Shown here in pieces: positions 20,747 to 26,948 of a DNA stretch of 60,099 nt. The translations under genes and the position numbers were made by a program. How positions within the stretch are numbered: the first letter of the stretch is position 1; every line of letters begins with the position of its first letter. Source of the stretch: Pseudomonadota bacterium (GTDB lineage Bacteria; Pseudomonadota; Alphaproteobacteria; Kiloniellales; J153); contig JACZVL010000002.1 of assembly GCA_022572685.1 (NCBI GenBank), positions 1 to 60,099 on the forward strand. Direction: 5' to 3'. The notes beneath the pieces are model-generated. The model saw nothing but the letters and a program-made list of their open reading frames with translations. It did no database searches and was not told the DNA's origin.

Positions 20747-21235
20747 ATGGGAATCATCGACCGTGGCCTGCGCGGCCTGCTGCTGTCCGAGCTTCTGGGC
20801 GGCATGGCCCTCACCCTGCGCTATTTCTTCAAGCCCAAGGTGACGCTCAACTATCCCTACGAGAAGGGGCCGCTCAGTCCGAGGTTTCGCGGCGAACACG
20901 CGCTCCGGCGCTATCCCAACGGCGAGGAGCGCTGCATCGCCTGCAAGCTCTGCGAGGCGATCTGCCCGGCCCAGGCGATCACCATCGAGGCCGAGCCGCG
21001 CGCCGACGGCAGCCGCCGCGCCACGCGCTACGACATCGACATGACCAAGTGCATCTACTGCGGCTTCTGCGAGGAGGCCTGCCCGGTGGACGCGATCGTC
21101 GAGGGGCCGAACTTCGAGTTCGCCACCGAGACCCGGGAGGAGCTGTTCTACAACAAGGAAAAGCTGCTCGCCAACGGCGACCGCTGGGAGGTGGAGATCG
21201 CCCATAACCTCACCCTGGACGCGCCCTATCGCTAG
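20747..21235 (+). CDS. nuoI: NADH-quinone oxidoreductase subunit I (2x 4Fe-4S)
   Basis: [10 protein letters not shown] start. Has two ferredoxin motifs, [12 protein letters not shown] and [12 protein letters not shown]. Confidence 0.96.
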
Positions 21236-21260
21236 GCGTGGCCCCTATCGCTAAGTGTGG
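21224..21260. repeat. Tandem ~19-bp duplication of the nuoI stop-codon region
   Basis: ccctatcgctaggcgtgg (including the nuoI TAG) is followed one nt later by ccctatcgctaagtgtgg. Confidence 0.8.
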
Positions 21261-21325
21261 GGGGTATGAATGAAGGGAAACAATAACTTGTGCGCGAAAC
21301 TTGAGAGCATGGACGGGGGCCGGCG

Positions 21326-21934
21326 GTGATCATTCAGGCGCTCGCCTTCTATCTCTTCGCCGCCATCACGGTGGCTTCGGGCGTCATGGTGATCTCGGCG
21401 CGCAACCCGGTGCATTCGGTGCTGTTCCTGATCCTCGCGTTCTTCAACGCGGCCGGGCTGTTCGTGCTGATGGGCGCGGAGTTCCTGGCCATGATCCTGA
21501 TCGTGGTCTACGTCGGCGCGGTGGCGGTGCTGTTCCTCTTCGTGGTCATGATGCTCGACATCAATTTCACCGAGCTGCGCCAGGGCTTCCTGCAGTACCT
21601 GCCGATCGGCGCGCTGGTCGGGATCATCCTGCTGGTCGAGTTGATTGCGGTGGTGGGCGCCTGGGTGGTGGCGCCGGAGGCGGGCCTGGCCACCAGCCTG
21701 CCGATCCCGCCGCCCGATCAGGTCACCAATACCCAGGCCTTGGGCGAGGTGCTCTACACCAAGTACATCTACCTGTTCCAGACGGCGGGACTGGTGCTGC
21801 TGGTCGCCATGATCGGCGCCATCGTGCTGACCCTGCGCCAGCGCGAGGGCGTGCGCCGCCAGAACATCGGCGAGCAGGTCTCGCGCGAGGCCACCGTCGA
21901 GGTCAAGAACGTCCCCAGCGGAAGCGGAATCTGA
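21326..21934 (+). CDS. nuoJ: NADH-quinone oxidoreductase subunit J
   Basis: GTG start. 202 aa membrane protein with NPVHSVLFLILAFFNAAGLF and VYVGAVAVLFLFVVMM. Confidence 0.94.
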   Translation: MIIQALAFYLFAAITVASGVMVISARNPVHSVLFLILAFFNAAGLFVLMGAEFLAMILIVVYVGAVAVLFLFVVMMLDINFTELRQGFLQYLPIGALVGIILLVELIAVVGAWVVAPEAGLATSLPIPPPDQVTNTQALGEVLYTKYIYLFQTAGLVLLVAMIGAIVLTLRQREGVRRQNIGEQVSREATVEVKNVPSGSGI

Positions 21935-21937
21935 GCC

Positions 21938-22249
21938 ATGTTCGAGATCGGCCTTTCCCATTACCTGACGGTCGCCGCGATCCTGTTCACGCTTGGAATC
22001 TTCGGCATCTTCCTGAACCGCAAGAACGTGATCATCATCCTGATGTCGATCGAGCTCATGCTGCTCGCGGTCAACATCAACCTGGTCGCCTTCTCGACCC
22101 ACCTGAACGATCTGGTGGGCCAGGTCTTCGCCCTGTTCGTGCTCACCGTGGCGGCGGCGGAGGCGGCGATCGGCCTGGCCATCCTGGTGGCCTACTTCCG
22201 CAACCGCGGCTCGATCGCGGTCGAGGACATCAACCTGATGAAGGGCTGA
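21938..22249 (+). CDS. nuoK: NADH-quinone oxidoreductase subunit K
   Basis: 103 aa. Contains [18 protein letters not shown] and [20 protein letters not shown]. Confidence 0.96.
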
Positions 22250-22254
22250 GCCGG
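22204..22254. repeat. Left copy of the 51-bp perfect direct repeat (last 14 nuoK codons, the stop, and the spacer)
   Basis: ccgcggctcgatcgcggtcgaggacatcaacctgatgaagggctgagccgg is identical to 23419-23469. After one mismatch (22255 t versus 23470 a), the identity continues through catgc. Confidence 0.97.
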
Positions 22255-22256
22255 TC

Positions 22257-22919
22257 ATGCCGACCACGATAGAAGCCCTTCTGCTCGTAATACTTTTTGT
22301 TGGGCCGGGATTCTTGTGCGCGCGCTTCGTGCGGGCGGAAATCCCTAGTAGCCTTACCGGAGAAAAAAATTCGATCATTCTTTCAATGATATTTAGCACA
22401 CTGATTCATACAATATTATTGCCGTACACAATATTTATTCTACCAAATATTCAGGAATTTATTGCATCTCTTAATCAACCTAATAACAGAAATAACTTGT
22501 CCATTGATTGGTTGGTTTTTTGTTGGATTGTTATTGTCTTGTTTGTTGCGCCGTTGGTTACTGCACTTGCTTTGTCGTGGTTATGGCGTTTCGAGCCGAT
22601 GCAACCGTTTCTCTCGAAGCTAGGCATGTCCGTAACGCAAACGATTCCTACGGCTTGGGATTGGGTTTTCCTTTCCCAAACAGACGGCTGCTGGATCGTT
22701 GCAGAGATGGAGGATGGATCGGTAGTGGGTGGAGAGTATGGTGCGGGTTCATTCGCTTCGCTATCTCCACACCGCAGTGATTTATTCTTGGAAAAAGAGT
22801 ACGAGCTAGATGAGAATCACAACTTTCTTGACGTGCTTCCGGACACTGTTGGTGTCTGGATAAACGTAGAAAAGGTGAAACACATCCATCTTTATCGGGT
22901 ATTGGAAGACGAAGGATGA
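22257..22919 (+). CDS. Hypothetical integral membrane protein (220 aa): 3 predicted N-terminal TM helices plus a ~100-aa acidic C-terminal domain; architecture reminiscent of DUF6338-type proteins (unverified)
   Basis: Only long ORF in the AT-rich insert. Hydrophobic stretches at about residues 5-23, 38-62 and 83-110. The ATG occupies the position homologous to the nuoL ATG in the duplicated junction, so it inherits that initiation region. Confidence 0.7.
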   Translation: MPTTIEALLLVILFVGPGFLCARFVRAEIPSSLTGEKNSIILSMIFSTLIHTILLPYTIFILPNIQEFIASLNQPNNRNNLSIDWLVFCWIVIVLFVAPLVTALALSWLWRFEPMQPFLSKLGMSVTQTIPTAWDWVFLSQTDGCWIVAEMEDGSVVGGEYGAGSFASLSPHRSDLFLEKEYELDENHNFLDVLPDTVGVWINVEKVKHIHLYRVLEDEG

Positions 22920-22922
22920 GTC

Positions 22923-23102
22923 ATGAGTAAGAAAGAACAAGCAAGCACACGCCGCACCCCGAGGGAAATAAATGTTGGTCGGGTGACTCAAGTTGGCAAA
23001 GGTGCACAGCCACTTTCAGGCGCTGGACCAAAGCCAAGCAGGAAGCCTGGAACTGGTACGGTTGTAAGCTCAGGTTCGGGTGTTGAAAAAAAAGAAAAAT
23101 AG
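22923..23102 (+). CDS. Small basic Lys/Pro/Gly-rich protein (59 aa), below the ORF-track cutoff
   Basis: My translation: MSKKEQASTRRTPREINVGRVTQVGKGAQPLSGAGPKPSRKPGTGTVVSSGSGVEKKEK. GAAGGA lies 8 nt upstream of the ATG, and the ATG is 3 nt after the upstream stop (coupled arrangement). Confidence 0.45.
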   Translation: MSKKEQASTRRTPREINVGRVTQVGKGAQPLSGAGPKPSRKPGTGTVVSSGSGVEKKEK

Positions 23103-23173
23103 CCTTTTAAGAAGATTTCAGACGTAGAGCCTAGTCGAGACAATTTTCGCGATCGGGATGCGAGGACGGAAAA

Positions 23174-23341
23174 GTGGAAACGAAAAACCGAAGTGGCCGA
23201 TTGGTTGAGGGTGCAAAACCATCGAAAAGTCCGGGAACGAAACCAGCCGAAAAAATTAAGCCACTAACATTTCGTGGGGGTGTTCAACCAAAAGCCCCTG
23301 CTGGCCCAAAACCGGCTGTCAAGCCAGGACCGAAGAAGTAA
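23174..23341 (+). CDS. Possible second small basic Lys/Pro/Gly-rich protein (55 aa, GTG start)
   Basis: My translation: (M)ETKNRSGRLVEGAKPSKSPGTKPAEKIKPLTFRGGVQPKAPAGPKPAVKPGPKK. GAGGA lies 7 nt upstream of the GTG. It shares the AGPKPxxKPG motif with the 22923 ORF. Confidence 0.3.
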   Translation: METKNRSGRLVEGAKPSKSPGTKPAEKIKPLTFRGGVQPKAPAGPKPAVKPGPKK

Positions 23342-23350
23342 GTGTTCGAA

Positions 23351-23464
23351 ATGACCGACGTCTGCCTGTTGCTGCAAGGCGCCACGACCACCGGGTGGCC
23401 AAACCGCTCGACGAATCTCCGCGGCTCGATCGCGGTCGAGGACATCAACCTGATGAAGGGCTGA
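23351..23464 (+). other. Chimeric 37-codon mini-ORF ending in the duplicated NuoK C-terminus ([14 protein letters not shown]-stop)
   Basis: The ATG at 23351 is in frame with the duplicated nuoK tail and its TGA at 23462-23464. The N-terminal 23 residues have no NuoK similarity. Confidence 0.3.
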
Positions 23465-23469
23465 GCCGG
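23419..23469. repeat. Right copy of the 51-bp perfect direct repeat (nuoK tail fragment plus the native nuoL upstream region)
   Basis: Identical to 22204-22254 and immediately precedes the nuoL ATG at 23472. Confidence 0.97.
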
Positions 23470-23471
23470 AC

Positions 23472-25403
23472 ATGCTGGAAACCGCCGTCGTCATTCTGCC
23501 GCTGATCGGCGCCGCCATCGCCGGGCTGTTCGGCCGCGCGATCGGCGGCCGTGGCGCCCAGGTGGTGACCTGCGCCCTGCTTGGCGTGTCGGCGCTGTTC
23601 GCGATGGTGGTGTTCAAGCAGGTCGCGATCGATGGCCAGACCCGGGTCACCGAGCTGTTCACCTGGATCGATTCGGGCGCCTTCGAATTCTCCTGGGCGA
23701 TCAAGCTGGACACTCTCAGCGCGGTCATGCTGCTGGTGGTCACCGTGGTGTCCTGGCTGATCCACATCTATTCGATCGGCTACATGTCCCACGACAAGTC
23801 GGTGCCGCGCTTCTTCTCCTACCTCAGCCTGTTCACGTTTTTCATGCTGGTGCTGGTGACCGCGGACAACTTCGTGCAGCTGTTCTTCGGCTGGGAGGGG
23901 GTCGGCCTCGCCTCCTACCTGCTGATCGGCTTCTGGTACCACAAGCCGAGCGCCAACGCCGCCGCGATCAAGGCGTTCCTGGTCAACCGGGTGGGCGACA
24001 TCGGCTTCGCGCTCGGCGTCTTCGGCACCTTCGCGCTGTTCGGCGCGGTCGGTTTCGAGCAGGTGTTCGCCGCCGTGCCGGGCCAGGCCGAGGCGACCTT
24101 CACCTTCCTCGGCATCGAGGGCCACGCGCTTACCATCATCTGCATCCTGCTGTTCATCGGCGCGATGGGCAAATCGGCGCAGATCGTGCTGCACACCTGG
24201 CTGCCCGACGCCATGGAGGGCCCGACCCCGGTGTCGGCGCTGATCCACGCCGCGACCATGGTGACCGCGGGGGTGTTCCTGCTGGTGCGGCTCTCGCCGA
24301 TGTTCGAATACGCGCCCGTGGCGCTCGAGCTGGTCACCTACGTCGGCGCCGCCACCGCCTTCTTCGCCGCCACCGTGGGCCTGGTGCAGAACGACATCAA
24401 GCGGGTGATCGCCTATTCGACCATCTCGCAGCTCGGCTACATGTTCTTCGCCATCGGGGTCTCGGCCTACGGCGCGGCGATCTTCCATCTGATGACCCAC
24501 GCCTTCTTCAAGGCGCTGCTGTTCCTGGGCGCGGGCTCGGTGATCCACGCCATGTCCGACGAGCAGGACATGCGCAAGATGGGCGGCATCTGGCGCAGGG
24601 TGCCGCTCACCTACGGGGTCATGTGGATCGGTTCCCTGGCGCTGGCGGGGGTGCCGCCGTTCGCCGGCTTCTTCTCCAAGGACATGATCCTGGAGGCCGC
24701 CTACGCGGCCCAATCCAGCCACGGCGCCTTGGCCTTCTGGCTCGGCATCGCCGCCGCCTTCATGACCGCGTTCTATTCCTGGCGCCTGTTGTTCATGGTC
24801 TTCCACGGGCGCCCGCGCGCGACGCCCGAGGTCATGAGCCGGGTCCACGAATCGCCCAAGGTCATGACCCTGCCTCTGATCGGGCTGGCCATCGGCGCGG
24901 TGTTCGCCGGCTACCTCGGCTTCGAGGCCTTCGTCGGCGAGGGCCGGGTCGAGTTCTGGGGCGCCGCGATCCTGGTGCTCGAGGGCAACGACGCCATCGA
25001 GGCGGCGCACCAGGTGCCGCTCTGGGTCAAGCTGCTGCCGCTCGGCATGGGCGCGGGCGGCATCGCGCTGGCCTGGATCATGTACGTGCGAATGCCCGCC
25101 ATCCCGGCCCTGCTGGCCACGCGCTTGCGGCCGCTCTACCTGTTCCTGCTGAATAAGTGGTACTTCGACGAGCTCTACGACTGGGCCTTCGTGCGGCCCG
25201 CCCACTACCTGGGGCGCGGCCTGTGGAAGTCGGGCGACGGTGCGGTCATCGACGGGGTCGGACCCGACGGCGTGGCGGCGGTGGCGCTGGTGCTCGCGCG
25301 CCGGGCCAGCCGCCTGCAGACCGGCTACCTCTACCACTACGCCTTCGCCATGATGATCGGGGTCGCCGGCCTGATCACCTGGTACATCGTGAGCCATCTG
25401 TAG
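23472..25403 (+). CDS. nuoL: NADH-quinone oxidoreductase subunit L
   Basis: 643 aa antiporter-like subunit with FFGWEGVGLASYLLIGFW and WLPDAMEGPTPVSALIHAATMVTAGV. Confidence 0.97.
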   Translation: MLETAVVILPLIGAAIAGLFGRAIGGRGAQVVTCALLGVSALFAMVVFKQVAIDGQTRVTELFTWIDSGAFEFSWAIKLDTLSAVMLLVVTVVSWLIHIYSIGYMSHDKSVPRFFSYLSLFTFFMLVLVTADNFVQLFFGWEGVGLASYLLIGFWYHKPSANAAAIKAFLVNRVGDIGFALGVFGTFALFGAVGFEQVFAAVPGQAEATFTFLGIEGHALTIICILLFIGAMGKSAQIVLHTWLPDAMEGPTPVSALIHAATMVTAGVFLLVRLSPMFEYAPVALELVTYVGAATAFFAATVGLVQNDIKRVIAYSTISQLGYMFFAIGVSAYGAAIFHLMTHAFFKALLFLGAGSVIHAMSDEQDMRKMGGIWRRVPLTYGVMWIGSLALAGVPPFAGFFSKDMILEAAYAAQSSHGALAFWLGIAAAFMTAFYSWRLLFMVFHGRPRATPEVMSRVHESPKVMTLPLIGLAIGAVFAGYLGFEAFVGEGRVEFWGAAILVLEGNDAIEAAHQVPLWVKLLPLGMGAGGIALAWIMYVRMPAIPALLATRLRPLYLFLLNKWYFDELYDWAFVRPAHYLGRGLWKSGDGAVIDGVGPDGVAAVALVLARRASRLQTGYLYHYAFAMMIGVAGLITWYIVSHL

Positions 25404-25415
25404 GCGGGCGCGGAC

Positions 25416-26948
25416 ATGAGCGACTTTCCGATCCTGTCGATGGTGACCTTCCTGCCGCTGCTCGGCGCGGGCATCATCCTGGCGTTCAACCGCGGCACGC
25501 CGGAGGAAACCGCGGCGCCGGCGCGCTACATGGCGCTCTGGACCTCGCTGATCACCTTCCTGCTGTCGCTGTTCCTGTGGTTCGACTTCGACCGCGGCAC
25601 GGCCGAGTTCCAGTTCGTCGAGCAGGCCGACTGGCTGCCCGGTTTCAACATCTCCTACCACATGGGGGTCGACGGCATCTCGGTGCTGTTCGTGCTGCTC
25701 ACGACCCTGCTCACGCCGCTCTGCGTGATCTGCAGCTGGACCGCGATCCAGAACCGGGTCAAGGAATACATGATCGCCTTCCTGGTGCTCGAGACGCTCA
25801 TGATCGGCATGTTCTGCGCGCTCGATTTCGTGCTGTTCTACATGTTCTACGAGGCCGTGCTGATCCCGATGTTCCTGATCATCGGCATCTGGGGCGGACC
25901 GAGGCGAGTCTATTCGGCGTTCAAGTTCTTCCTCTTTACCCTGACCGGCTCGGTGCTGCTGCTGCTCGCGCTGCTGGCCATGTACTTCGAGGCCGGCACC
26001 ACGGACATTCCGACCCTGCTCGCCTACAGCTTCCCGCGCGAGATGCAGATCTGGCTGTGGCTGGCGCTGTTCGCCTCCTTCGCGGTCAAGGTGCCGATGT
26101 GGCCGGTGCATACCTGGCTGCCGGACGCCCACGTCGAGGCGCCGACCGCGGGCTCGGTGATGCTGGCGGCGGTGCTGTTGAAGATGGGCGGCTACGGCTT
26201 CTTCCGCTTCTCCCTGCCCATGCTGCCCGAGGCCTCGGAGTTCTTCACGCCCTTCATCTATACGCTGTCGATCGTGGCGATCATCTACACCTCGCTGGTC
26301 GCGCTCGCCCAGGAGGACATGAAGAAGCTGATCGCCTATTCCTCGATCGCCCACATGGGTTTCGTGACCCTCGGCGCCTTCACCGGAAACCAGCAGGGCC
26401 TGGAGGGCGCGCTGTTCCAGATGCTGTCCCACGGCGTGATCTCGGCCGCCTTGTTCCTGATCGTCGGCGTGATCTACGACCGCGTCCACACCCGCGAGAT
26501 CGCCGACTACGAGGGCCTGGTCGAGCGCATGCCCGCCTATTCGGTGGTGTTCATGATCTTCATGCTGGCCTCGGTCGGGCTGCCCGGCACCGGCGGCTTC
26601 GTCGGCGAGTTCCTGATCCTGGTCGGCGTGTTCCAGGTCAACACCTGGCTCGCGCTGCTGGCGGCCAGCGGCATGGTGCTGGGCGCGGCCTACATGCTCT
26701 ACCTCTACCGCCGGATCATCTTCGGCACACTCACCAAGGACAGTCTCAAGTCGATTCTGGACATGAACCGGCGCGAGGCGCTGGTGTTCGCGCCGCTGGT
26801 GGTGCTGGTGTTCTGGATGGGCATCTATCCGATGTCGTTCCTCGACTTCATGTCGGTCTCGGTCAGCAACCTGATCGAGAACTACCAGGGCGCGCTGGCC
26901 GCCGCCGACGGCGTCCCCAATCTTGTGTCTCTGGGCGCAGCGCAGTGA
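25416..26948 (+). CDS. nuoM: NADH-quinone oxidoreductase subunit M
   Basis: 510 aa with [30 protein letters not shown] and [11 protein letters not shown]. Confidence 0.97.

Follow-up and report, generated by a model that had tools for sequence, protein, structure and literature searches.

Extra ORFs within complex I operons are known from Alphaproteobacteria, in which URFs are embedded in nqo/nuo clusters, e.g. those of Paracoccus denitrificans and Rhodobacter capsulatus. Other systems close to the locus described here are att-flanked genomic islands and integron-type cassettes, and insertions by homology-facilitated illegitimate recombination (defined in PMC3240628) or of the Campbell type; a passage in one report (PMC5361080) cites such recombination with regard to the arrays of T6SS effector/immunity genes in Vibrio cholerae. 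With respect to gene content, the closest described case is an operon of P. stutzeri with a DUF6338 gene and three proline-rich small proteins, which were detected by proteomics/mass spectrometry and regarded as species-specific (PMC10433244).

The stretch of DNA analyzed here (60,099 nucleotides, referred to as the window) resembles the URF-containing clusters in that extra co-oriented ORFs are located inside the complex I operon. In contrast to the URFs, however, these ORFs form a cassette that is strain-variable within the species, compositionally foreign (GC3 of the cassette genes 0.35-0.46 vs 0.94-0.96 for nuoJ, nuoK and nuoL), bracketed by an apparent recombination scar, and part of a family that mostly occurs outside nuo operons. 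Taken as a whole, the locus is best explained, and in our view rather probably, as a passive accessory cassette without a recombinase, consisting of a DUF6338 gene for a predicted membrane protein and a partner gene for a proline-rich micro-protein, present in two copies, inserted co-directionally between nuoK and nuoL.

A strain-variable insert between nuoK and nuoL

Both nuoK (positions 21938-22249, 103 aa; PF00420, E 9.6e-32) and nuoL (23472-25403, 643 aa; PF00662, PF00361, PF06455) are intact, and between them lie 1164 nt (22255-23418), a cassette of about 1.2 kb with three genes; these and all features mentioned below are on the forward strand. The NuoK protein of the window is encoded identically by 19 other metagenome contigs, and a NuoL of 643 aa is also found in a more distant empty-site contig (L194, approximately 91% nuoL DNA identity). 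The insert has a GC content of 47%, compared with 67% for the whole window, and minima in 200-nt windows across it reach 0.355-0.38. The first-pass annotation had described an AT-rich foreign insert at this junction; its G+C counts (16 of 60 at 22381-22440, 45 of 60 at 22141-22200) are exact, and both windowed GC and GC3 agree with it.

The insert is flanked by two 100% identical copies of a 51-nt direct repeat (22204-22254 and 23419-23469), which continue past a single T/A mismatch (22255/23470) into CATGC, 57 bp in total. The left copy (22204-22260) comprises the nuoK 3' end, whose last 14 codons and stop make up the bulk of it, a spacer of 7 nt and the DUF6338 start codon (ATG), while the right copy (23419-23475) has the same nuoK 3' end and spacer, followed by the nuoL ATG, and thus provides the native upstream region of nuoL. 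Neither the first nor the last 20 nt of the 51-mer have a further copy anywhere in the window. The perfect repeat, the position of the mismatch and the CATGC continuation had all been noted before and are borne out by the sequence, as is the integrity of nuoL downstream of the right copy, which is supported by the ORF listing and Pfam domains. The earlier statement that the insert is free of mobility genes also stands: ORF, profile and repeat checks of the insert for a recombinase, a transposase or terminal inverted repeats found none.

The cassette is polymorphic within the species, with filled and precise empty alleles coexisting. An independently assembled contig (L003, 1658 nt, 99.6% identical) covers nuoK, the cassette and nuoL, whereas four conspecific contigs (L191, L196, L198, L200) are empty, with flanks 99.3-100% identical on both sides and exactly one copy of the repeat. 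Empty sites with a single 51-mer, whose existence had been proposed as a check, are thus present in the same species, where the one-copy contigs match the empty allele expected from the repeats, and in other species as well. Within the species, flank similarity does not differ between filled and empty alleles, which would fit gain of the cassette as well as loss. Numerous related contigs terminate exactly in the repeat, as might be expected if the assembly were chimeric or had collapsed or expanded a repeat. The probability of such an artefact is nevertheless negligible: independent assemblies such as L003 span both junctions, filled and empty contigs were drawn from several projects and assemblers, and the exact repeat, at just 51 nt, falls below the assemblers' final k (k141 for MEGAHIT as read from contig names, and assumed for the remaining assemblies).

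The direct repeat and the nuoL relic

Directly past the stop codon of the last cassette gene (s2) and adjoining the right repeat copy, there is a second, degenerate nuoL 5' end (pseudo-nuoL start, 77 nt, 23342-23418). This relic shows 60% ungapped identity over 60 nt, in codon-1 register, to the nuoL genes of the window and L015, compared with a phase-matched background of 0.32 ± 0.06 (maximum 0.48, n = 1147), and none of 2000 shuffles reached this identity. L176, L178 and L014 have this segment too. Because the relic precedes the right copy, the repeat points to a scar of homology-driven integration, rather than to an att site, with a donor that would have carried the nuoK 3' end, the cassette and the nuoL 5' end. 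Such a donor, consisting of the last 51 nt of nuoK plus spacer, the cassette and the first ~70 nt of nuoL, would have joined an empty nuoK-nuoL site via the conserved nuoK 3' end, either through a single crossover, if the fragment was circular, or through homology-facilitated illegitimate recombination, if it was linear.

The locus shares with homology-facilitated and Campbell-type insertions that one end is anchored in conserved host sequence, that a host segment is duplicated, with the other flank of the donor left as a decaying remnant, and that no dedicated recombinase is involved. It differs from these cases in that the event is reconstructed from its scar, that an essential respiratory gene provides the anchor with its 3' end, and that the cassette allele is long-lived. 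The insertion had been called recent-looking, which did not hold, as diverged cassette alleles (dS about 0.6-0.7) carry the same scar. DNA divergence among the alleles with the same relic and right copy is 6-20%; L178, in which both are present, has a dS of 0.63 vs the window, and its divergence from the window amounts to 6% in the right copy, 25% in the relic and 47% in the s1-s2 spacer. The similarity of the right copy is therefore a matter of constraint or gene conversion, not of youth.

A duplicated target-gene 3' end forming a long direct repeat, together with a precise empty site, is also the typical product of a tyrosine-recombinase island, and in these features the locus resembles att-flanked islands and integron-type cassettes. 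The 51-mers might accordingly be attL and attR of a site-specific mobile element, integron-cassette-like or cis-mobilisable, whose integrase is encoded elsewhere. We consider this very unlikely. In contrast to those elements, the cassette lacks a recombinase, its ends show no inverted repeat or attC-like or other att-type structure, and the repeat is absent in sister lineages; about eight lineages carry the cassette without it. The degenerate nuoL 5' copy in front of the right copy rules against the repeat being an element end or att site, since such a relic is expected from a fragment with two flanks but not from site-specific recombination. In addition, a few other DUF6338 loci have tandem duplications and long repeats (66 nt to ~600 nt); at L066 at least, part of the module is duplicated together with the end of a neighbouring gene.

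Distribution and proposed spread of the cassette

Orthologous cassettes without the repeat are located at the nuoK/nuoL junction of approximately eight alphaproteobacterial lineages that are more distant (L009, L011, L015, L017/L185, L182, L183, L187, L201; the count leaves out the flanks of L018 and L180), and one whole DUF6338 subclade (36-98% identity) resides only at this junction. Among about 80 further species of Alphaproteobacteria, the nuoK-nuoL gap measures 0-36 nt in almost every one, and the filled lineages are scattered among empty ones in NuoL and NuoJKL trees. GC3 of the cassette is 0.36-0.71 in every filled lineage, compared with 0.80-0.96 for host genes. Repeat-less orthologues of native GC content across the whole clade had been named as the mark of an ancient operon member; orthologues without the repeat do exist in these lineages, but their GC content is non-native and no whole clade is filled.

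The 51-mer is identical in a species with a NuoL identity of only 69%, and a cross-species crossover site is therefore on offer. Under our preferred explanation, ordinary homologous recombination in the strongly conserved nuo flanks would carry the cassette from strain to strain and into related species. This would account for its constant position, and recombination between the repeats could remove it.

Alternatively, the cassette might be an ancient resident of the operon that entered nuoK-nuoL once, when an ancestor of this group of Alphaproteobacteria acquired it, descended vertically, evolved fast and was lost precisely many times, with repeat and relic resulting from a later local rearrangement, for example if the nuoL upstream region was patched from an empty-site relative. 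DUF6338 and NuoJKL trees concur on the sister pairs L017/L185 and L182/L183, pairwise identities of DUF6338 and host proteins correlate (r = 0.93, driven by two close pairs), all subclade members found have the same junction and orientation, several filled lineages are equally distant from their nearest filled and their nearest empty relatives, and the existence of empty alleles demonstrates that loss is possible. However, the low GC3 in every lineage is hard to reconcile with residence since a split at 63-75% NuoJKL identity. Moreover, the filled lineages are interspersed with empty ones at no fewer than five positions and the ancestor they share covers 51 of 87 taxa, which would require many precise losses, and repeat-less lineages have no homology to guide precise loss. 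The NJ trees have little resolution at such depth. Ancient residence is thus possible but doubtful.

The DUF6338 module and its possible function

The first cassette gene (22257-22919, 220 aa) encodes a full-length member of the DUF6338 family (PF19865, E 3.5e-31, 108.8 bits; cut-off 26.5 bits). Two small ORFs rich in K, P and G follow: s1 (22923-23102, 59 aa, motif GAQP...AGPKP), which starts 3 nt past the DUF6338 stop and is also called as a gene in other assemblies, and its paralogue s2 (23174-23341, 55 aa from a GTG, start uncertain, motif GVQP...AGPKPAVKPGPKK). Equivalents of the second peptide are present in L009, L015 and L014, and the C-terminal motif of s2 is retained in the L178 allele despite shortening. 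Estimates of dN/dS show purifying selection on all three genes, with 0.13-0.22 for the DUF6338 gene (GC3 0.46), 0.14-0.17 for s1 (vs diverged alleles) and 0.28 for s2 (vs L014).

Read-through from the nuo promoter is the sole economical reading of how the cassette would be transcribed, because its genes are co-oriented and tightly spaced and terminator-like signals in the insert do not exceed shuffled expectation; neither do promoter signals. Translation would proceed by coupling in the order nuoK, DUF6338, s1 ... s2, mini-ORF, nuoL. The mini-ORF (23342-23464; 40 codons from GTG, or 37 from ATG at 23351) is an open frame that runs from the nuoL relic into the nuoK-frame repeat copy and ends at a nuoK-type stop 7 nt upstream of the nuoL ATG. 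According to alignment and frame-2 translation it is also open in L176 and L178, and it may act as a translational-coupling bridge.

The cassette is a member of a widespread, hardly described two-gene module of DUF6338 and a proline-rich micro-ORF. DUF6338 genes are found across phyla, on plasmids and on a phage-plasmid, in small low-GC islets with a median of ~0.9 kb, typically with a "GYQP" proline-rich micro-ORF just 3' of them. The GYQP-type motif 1 occurs next to DUF6338 at 48 of 79 loci, compared with 7.9% of control ORFs, and both micro-ORF motifs at 22 of 79 loci, compared with 0.1% of controls; the arrangement extends to an Acinetobacter plasmid and a Klebsiella phage-plasmid. The P. 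stutzeri operon likewise has more than one small proline-rich ORF after its DUF6338 gene, but contrary to the presumed species-specificity the pairing is found again in many phyla, on plasmids and on a phage-plasmid. The window subclade differs from that operon by its exclusive position between nuoK and nuoL and by its variant peptide motif (GA/VQP...AGPKP instead of the common GYQP...PPSNPPNQGSGGKK).

The DUF6338 protein is predicted to have three to four transmembrane helices at its N-terminus and, at its C-terminus, a beta-barrel of the Sm/LSm type (AF2 model, pLDDT 88.5). In a fold search with this model the C-terminal domain superposes on Sm/LSm proteins, to which all top PDB matches belong (target-normalised TM-score 0.5-0.64); the E-values are weak (0.03-0.3), but all top matches concur. 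A full-length structural match to a phage protein was also obtained. Unlike this structural likeness, sequence similarity to any solved structure was not found, and searches of PADLOC, PHROG and PDB sequences with the cassette gave no significant match. A cytoplasmic Sm-like beta domain is known from the membrane channel MscS, which is not among the 50 best fold matches listed. In the model a transmembrane bundle is succeeded by a cytoplasmic Sm-like barrel, a layout suggestive of a membrane oligomer that forms a ring.

We hypothesize that the cassette is a defence, toxin or selfish module. More specifically, and tentatively, DUF6338 might form an inner-membrane oligomer whose Sm-like domain, on the cytoplasmic side, binds disordered GxQP/proline-rich peptides expressed along with it, the whole acting as a conflict module, either by toxin/antitoxin-like addiction or by phage or plasmid exclusion via membrane permeabilisation. 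Some DUF6338 genes have restriction-modification, DISARM or Thoeris genes as neighbours; the majority of neighbours are housekeeping genes.

Alternatively, complex I might have taken over the nuo-linked DUF6338 clade as an accessory membrane subunit, an assembly factor or a regulator, which would be expressed along with NuoJ, K and L of the membrane arm. This is improbable, as the species can dispense with the cassette, the codon usage of which is foreign, and most DUF6338 modules are located in unrelated contexts, on plasmids or a phage-plasmid. The purifying selection on the cassette genes would nevertheless fit such a role, as would the exclusive, co-oriented and translationally tight position of the subclade between membrane-arm genes, and other small membrane-protein genes have entered the nuoK/nuoL junction independently (L126, L173).

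A low-GC cassette between nuoK and nuoL

The genes nuoK (21938-22249) and nuoL (23472-25403), both on the forward strand and both intact with full Pfam matches, are separated by 1164 nt (22255-23418) with a GC content of 47%, compared with 67% for the whole window, and with a minimum of 0.355-0.38 in 200-nt windows. Codon usage differs in the same direction, with a GC3 of 0.94-0.96 in nuoJ, nuoK and nuoL versus 0.46, 0.35 and 0.36 in the three ORFs of the insert (a DUF6338 gene and two micro-ORFs, s1 and s2). The insert is bracketed by a direct repeat of the nuoK 3' end and the adjoining spacer: 22204-22254 and 23419-23469 are identical at 51 of 51 nt, the next position is a T/A mismatch, and CATGC follows in both copies. 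The description of repeat, mismatch and low-GC insert in the first-pass annotation was thus accurate on re-measurement, and the windowed GC and codon-usage check it had proposed gave the values listed here. Its statement that integrase, transposase, terminal inverted repeats and terminator are missing also stands, as none of these was detected and terminator-type signals did not exceed the shuffled expectation; the same was true of promoter signals in a scan of the insert, and an Rfam search returned no family (best E 0.89).

Three ORFs in the insert have support. The first (22257-22919, + strand) is a full-length member of Pfam family PF19865, DUF6338; its residues 1-215 cover positions 1-202 of the 205 in the profile (108.8 bits, cut-off 26.5 bits; E 3.5e-31). 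It is followed after 3 nt by s1 (22923-23102, 59 aa) and further downstream by s2 (23174-23341, 55 aa), whose products are rich in lysine, proline and glycine and have the motif G(A/V)QP...AGPKP in common. Compared with diverged alleles, dN/dS is 0.13-0.22 for DUF6338, 0.14-0.17 for s1 and 0.28 for s2, and all three are therefore constrained coding genes. Beyond Pfam, searches of PHROGs, PADLOC and NCBIfam gave no significant match for the DUF6338 protein and none for the s1 and s2 peptides; in PADLOC-DB v2 the best match of DUF6338 was to a 2TM effector model (E 0.14, not significant), and the peptides had no match at all.

Additional ORFs are already known from nuo operons, and the DUF family is a catalogued one; our search for published literature on nuo-operon URFs found nothing usable. 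One new aspect is that a cassette within the complex I operon is naturally present in some strains and absent from others, and that its recombination scar can still be read. The filled structure is not an assembly artefact: an identical DUF6338 protein is encoded by nine other metagenome contigs, and the filled junction recurs in independent contigs such as L003 (1658 nt, 99.6% identical), which runs through nuoK, cassette and nuoL in one piece, so that the misassembly considered in the first-pass annotation does not apply. In this otherwise 99.6% identical allele the right-repeat spacer reads GGGCTGATCGGAACATG instead of GGGCTGAGCCGGACATG (L003:1246-1396 versus window 23365-23515), and the nuoL-proximal spacer is therefore variable among strains.

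A search of metagenome contigs for the identical NuoK protein retrieved 19 contigs, among them four (L191, L196, L198, L200) that are 99.3-100% identical to the window on both flanks and lead from nuoK through one repeat copy straight into nuoL, with exactly one 1215-bp period absent. The empty sites with a single 51-mer anticipated in the first-pass annotation are thus present in the same species, and, in line with the proposal, the cassette is foreign, accessory and capable of precise removal. The empty contigs of this set come from several projects and assemblers, and sister samples within the same studies hold both filled and empty alleles. Loop-skipping during assembly is unlikely because the 51-nt exact repeat is shorter than the assemblers' final k-mer (k141 for MEGAHIT, as read from contig names, a value assumed for the other assemblies). 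At the mismatch position L196 has T, the variant of the left copy, and L191 and L198 have A, which fits excision with different crossover points and could also be a simple polymorphism. Filled and empty alleles are equally similar in their flanks, and gain and loss are for this reason not separable within the species. In its distribution the cassette does not behave as a complex I subunit, being missing from conspecific strains and from about 80 other alphaproteobacterial nuo operons; an accessory role in complex I is an alternative for the nuo-linked clade. Even where the genes of an essential respiratory operon are most tightly coupled, in its core, a foreign cassette that varies among strains can be present.

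Four further contigs with the identical NuoK protein (L195, L197, L199, L194), compared with window 20951-25841, show mosaic identity with a shift at the nuoK/nuoL junction. The values for nuoJ-K and for nuoL are, for instance, 85.6% and 99.7% in L199, and 95% and 91% in L194. Either the strains have truly recombined, with the breakpoint in the conserved nuoK 3' end, or co-occurring relatives were assembled into chimeras.

A nuoL relic and the route and age of insertion

Positions 23342-23418, the 77 nt that lead from the s2 stop to the right repeat, are a nuoL 5' end in decayed form, with 60% ungapped identity to that of both the window and L015, a contig with a related cassette, in register from the first codon. 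In a pre-specified, ungapped and in-register test, the codon-phase-matched background was 0.32 +/- 0.06 with a maximum of 0.48 (n = 1147), and none of 2000 shuffles reached the observed identity; gapped local alignment of the relic with nuoL was unconvincing (p = 0.01-0.46). The order at the locus is therefore nuoK 3' end and spacer, cassette, pseudo-nuoL 5' end, nuoK 3' end and spacer, nuoL. RNA folding of 23330-23490 was not more stable than shuffles (z = +1.5), this segment including only the first arm of a 16-nt, 88% complementary inverted repeat between the relic (23378-23393) and the true nuoL 5' region (23543-23558; 149 nt apart), which is probably a by-product of the two diverged nuoL copies or of GC-rich composition.

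A duplicated host flank of 51/57 nt, a nuoL 5' remnant and single-copy empty alleles (L191, L196, L198, L200) were all found. Judged from the sequence, the repeat is a homology-driven insertion scar (HFIR or Campbell type) and not the end of an element; the reading of the repeats as element termini was not borne out, as the relic directly precedes the right copy. A donor fragment consisting of the last 51 nt of nuoK, the cassette and the first ~70 nt of nuoL would join an empty nuoK-nuoL site via the nuoK 3' end, either after circularisation and by a single crossover, or with one end inserted by homologous recombination and the other by illegitimate joining, a process defined in PMC3240628. 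The donor-type arrangement required by this model is that of the cassettes in L009, L011, L015 and L017, in which the repeat is absent and the last small ORF abuts the nuoL ATG. The 51-mer recurs without a mismatch in L001, from a species with just 69% NuoL identity to the window, and might plausibly serve as a cross-species anchor for recombination. Gain and loss of a cassette without a dedicated mobility enzyme can be read from the sequence record.

Several other kinds of element were considered and rejected. For a site-specific integrative element or integron cassette there is no recombinase and no inverted-repeat or attC-like structure at the ends, the repeat is missing from the filled junctions of L009, L011, L015 and L017, and a nuoL relic is not expected from a site-specific recombinase. 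An insertion sequence, transposon or MITE is contradicted by the lack of terminal inverted repeats and transposase and by a duplication comprising 51-57 nt of a gene end. The ends of the 1.2-kb contigs are exactly the k-1 overlaps expected of repeat-bounded linear unitigs, and these contigs are uninformative on circular excision products.

The insertion had been described as recent-looking, which is not borne out. The relic is found in all of the DUF6338 alleles L176, L178 and L014 (93%, 85% and 77% protein identity), and the right-hand nuoK copy is common to L176 and L178, the contigs extending that far, at a dS of 0.63 between window and L178 and of 0.73 between window and L014. Between window and L178, divergence amounts to 47% in the s1-s2 spacer and 25% in the relic, and to 6% plus a 10-nt deletion in the right nuoK copy. 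Perfect repeat identity therefore reflects constraint or gene conversion and not a fresh event, and constraint on the right copy is plausible because it supplies the native upstream region of nuoL. An open frame across the relic (23342-23464) ends at a nuoK-type stop 7 nt upstream of nuoL and might maintain translational coupling to nuoL.

Cassettes at this junction in other lineages

The cassette is not confined to this genome; orthologues occupy the same site elsewhere. All placeable relatives with at least 36% identity share both the position between nuoK and nuoL and the orientation (L009/L016, L011/L012, L014, L015, L017, L018, L180, L182-L187, L201). Of about 80 further alphaproteobacterial species, all but six have nuoK and nuoL 0-36 nt apart. 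In neighbour-joining trees of NuoL and of concatenated NuoJKL, the cassette lineages fall in at least five places among empty ones, and 51 of the 87 taxa descend from their common ancestor. A pattern-prefiltered NuoL search of genome representatives, which did not include the window's own species and did not return the nearest one, gave an empty-site Pelagibius sp. as the closest named relative (74% NuoL identity). We favour a history in which the cassette spread among related lineages, carried by recombination in the conserved nuo flanks, and was also lost. A serious rival is that the cassette is an ancient vertical resident lost many times: the DUF6338 and host trees agree on the two close pairs, and r is 0.93 for the correlation of pairwise identities, whereas cassette GC3 is 0.36-0.71 in every lineage compared with 0.80-0.96 for the hosts.

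In one marine-sediment contig (L187:1317-1945) the nuo-linked DUF6338 match is split over two frames (residues 1-150 and 148-215), which suggests a frameshifted and possibly decaying copy, or a sequencing error. Different inserts are found at the nuoK-nuoL junction of other alphaproteobacteria (L126, L173, and also L141, L169, L135, L125). In L126:2138-3001 these are 862 nt of 31% GC (flanks 51%) with a 156-aa multi-transmembrane ORF without DUF6338 similarity. The insert in L173:1338-1941 is 602 nt long and has two ORFs, a coiled-coil-like one of 86 aa and a membrane one of 114 aa. Small membrane-protein genes may have landed at this junction repeatedly.

A widespread DUF6338 and micro-protein module

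A profile search at E <= 1e-3 recovered 3917 DUF6338 clusters (50% identity), nearly all of ~200 aa. Across 80 genome loci (Alphaproteobacteria, Gammaproteobacteria, Binatia, Chloroflexota, Planctomycetota, Thermodesulfobacteriota, Gemmatimonadota and other groups), the gene usually has a GC content 10-25 points lower than its flanks and forms a low-GC islet with a median of ~0.9 kb. A small same-strand ORF follows right after DUF6338 in most of 79 loci examined; typically it encodes 45-65 aa, with recurring (R/K/G)G(Y/H)QP motifs and a tail resembling PPSNPPNQGSGGKK, and lies directly 3', often overlapping the stop. Motif 1 was found beside DUF6338 in 48 of the 79 loci versus 7.9% of control small ORFs, and both motifs in 22 versus 0.1%. 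The window has the gene arrangement of such a module as we define it (a K/P/G/Q-rich ORF of ~40-80 aa on the same strand, at or a few tens of nt past the DUF6338 stop), its small ORF beginning directly after the stop; GAQP/GVQP followed by AGPKP...KPGPKK is a recognisable variant that differs from the common GYQP/GGHQP (usually present twice) with a PPSNPPNQGSGGKK-like tail. The same pairing occurs on a 10.5-kb Acinetobacter pittii plasmid, there with two peptides, and on the Klebsiella phage-plasmid pJN2-26.

The micro-proteins match no model in Pfam and NCBIfam searches and, where called at all, are annotated only as hypothetical. In P. stutzeri, three proline-rich small proteins in a predicted operon with a DUF6338 gene were detected by digest-free proteomics and treated as species-specific (PMC10433244), the only mention of DUF6338 that we found in the literature. 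The conserved pairing of DUF6338 with proline-rich micro-proteins is new and absent from database descriptions, and the case draws attention to this uncharacterised gene pair, which occurs across many phyla, on plasmids and on a phage-plasmid. With ~3,900 family clusters and the peptides already seen in one published proteomics study, the module is directly testable. It may prove to act in defence or addiction as a system of a new kind, or to be a novel type of membrane assembly that includes an Sm-like domain.

An AlphaFold2 model of the DUF6338 protein (116-sequence alignment, pLDDT 88.5) is confident; it begins with transmembrane helices and, past a short linker, ends in a helix with a bent beta-sheet. 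This C-terminal part has the Sm/LSm layout, with a helix at 133-140 followed by strands at 145-214, and the best fold matches in the PDB are almost all Sm/LSm or Gemin Sm-like proteins (TM-score normalised to target 0.5-0.64; probability mostly 0.9-1.0 among the best ~20, with E-values of just 0.03-0.3). A sequence profile search of the PDB gave no solved structure related to DUF6338. The only significant full-length structural match is an uncharacterised protein of Siphoviridae sp. ct96x5 (BFVD A0A8S5PTE5; E 4e-6, 217 aligned columns), which indicates that phage-encoded proteins have the same predicted architecture. Invariant residues (W134, D135, G159, S165, D175) are located at the start of and inside the Sm-like domain. 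Sm-like domains usually form rings, from which we infer an oligomeric membrane assembly whose putative cytoplasmic ring would bind the co-expressed disordered peptides.

As the module is found on plasmids, on a phage-plasmid and in strain-variable islets, a conflict or addiction role would be the most likely one, and we tentatively consider a membrane effector controlled by a labile peptide. The pointers to a toxin-antitoxin or abortive-infection system are circumstantial: two coupled genes, presence on plasmids and a phage-plasmid, and some defence genes among the neighbours, which are diverse and include restriction-modification, DISARM, Thoeris or PIN-domain genes in a minority of cases. 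Peptide export or immunity and a stress-related channel are alternative roles. The more specific proposal is a doubtful one, namely that DUF6338 and GxQP/proline-rich micro-proteins might form a widespread conflict system of two genes that has so far escaped description, with disordered peptides controlling a membrane pore or sensor that bears an Sm-like ring, carried as a minimal recombinase-free cassette. In this proposal the nuo-linked clade would use the extreme conservation of an essential operon as built-in homology arms for spread between strains and species, and would gain guaranteed expression and protection from imprecise deletion.

Long flanking or tandem duplications surround the module in L066, L074, L053 and L076. 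In L066:2576-5206 a tandem duplication of ~600 nt or more, with periods of 1840 and 1983, places a second copy of a GYQP-type peptide gene and the 3' end of an acylase-like gene upstream of DUF6338; a similar duplication in L074 has a 1448-nt period and includes the peptide gene start. DUF6338-like genes with host-like GC and no adjoining proline-rich micro-ORF occur in Hyphomonas/Henriciella (L086-L091) and in L055, L063 and L072 (Streptomyces). Their positions are conserved: in Hyphomonas an SbcD-like phosphoesterase gene lies downstream of them, and the Streptomyces genes, which encode ~290 aa, adjoin a Ser/Thr-kinase-like gene. These genes may be domesticated or divergent branches of the family. 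One Thermohalobaculum MAG contains three DUF6338 loci (L056, L075, L076), two of them with truncated 102-aa genes; these adjoin a repeated 165-nt segment, possibly an insertion-sequence repeat, with the start of another gene (MAQGVLPFEYE...).
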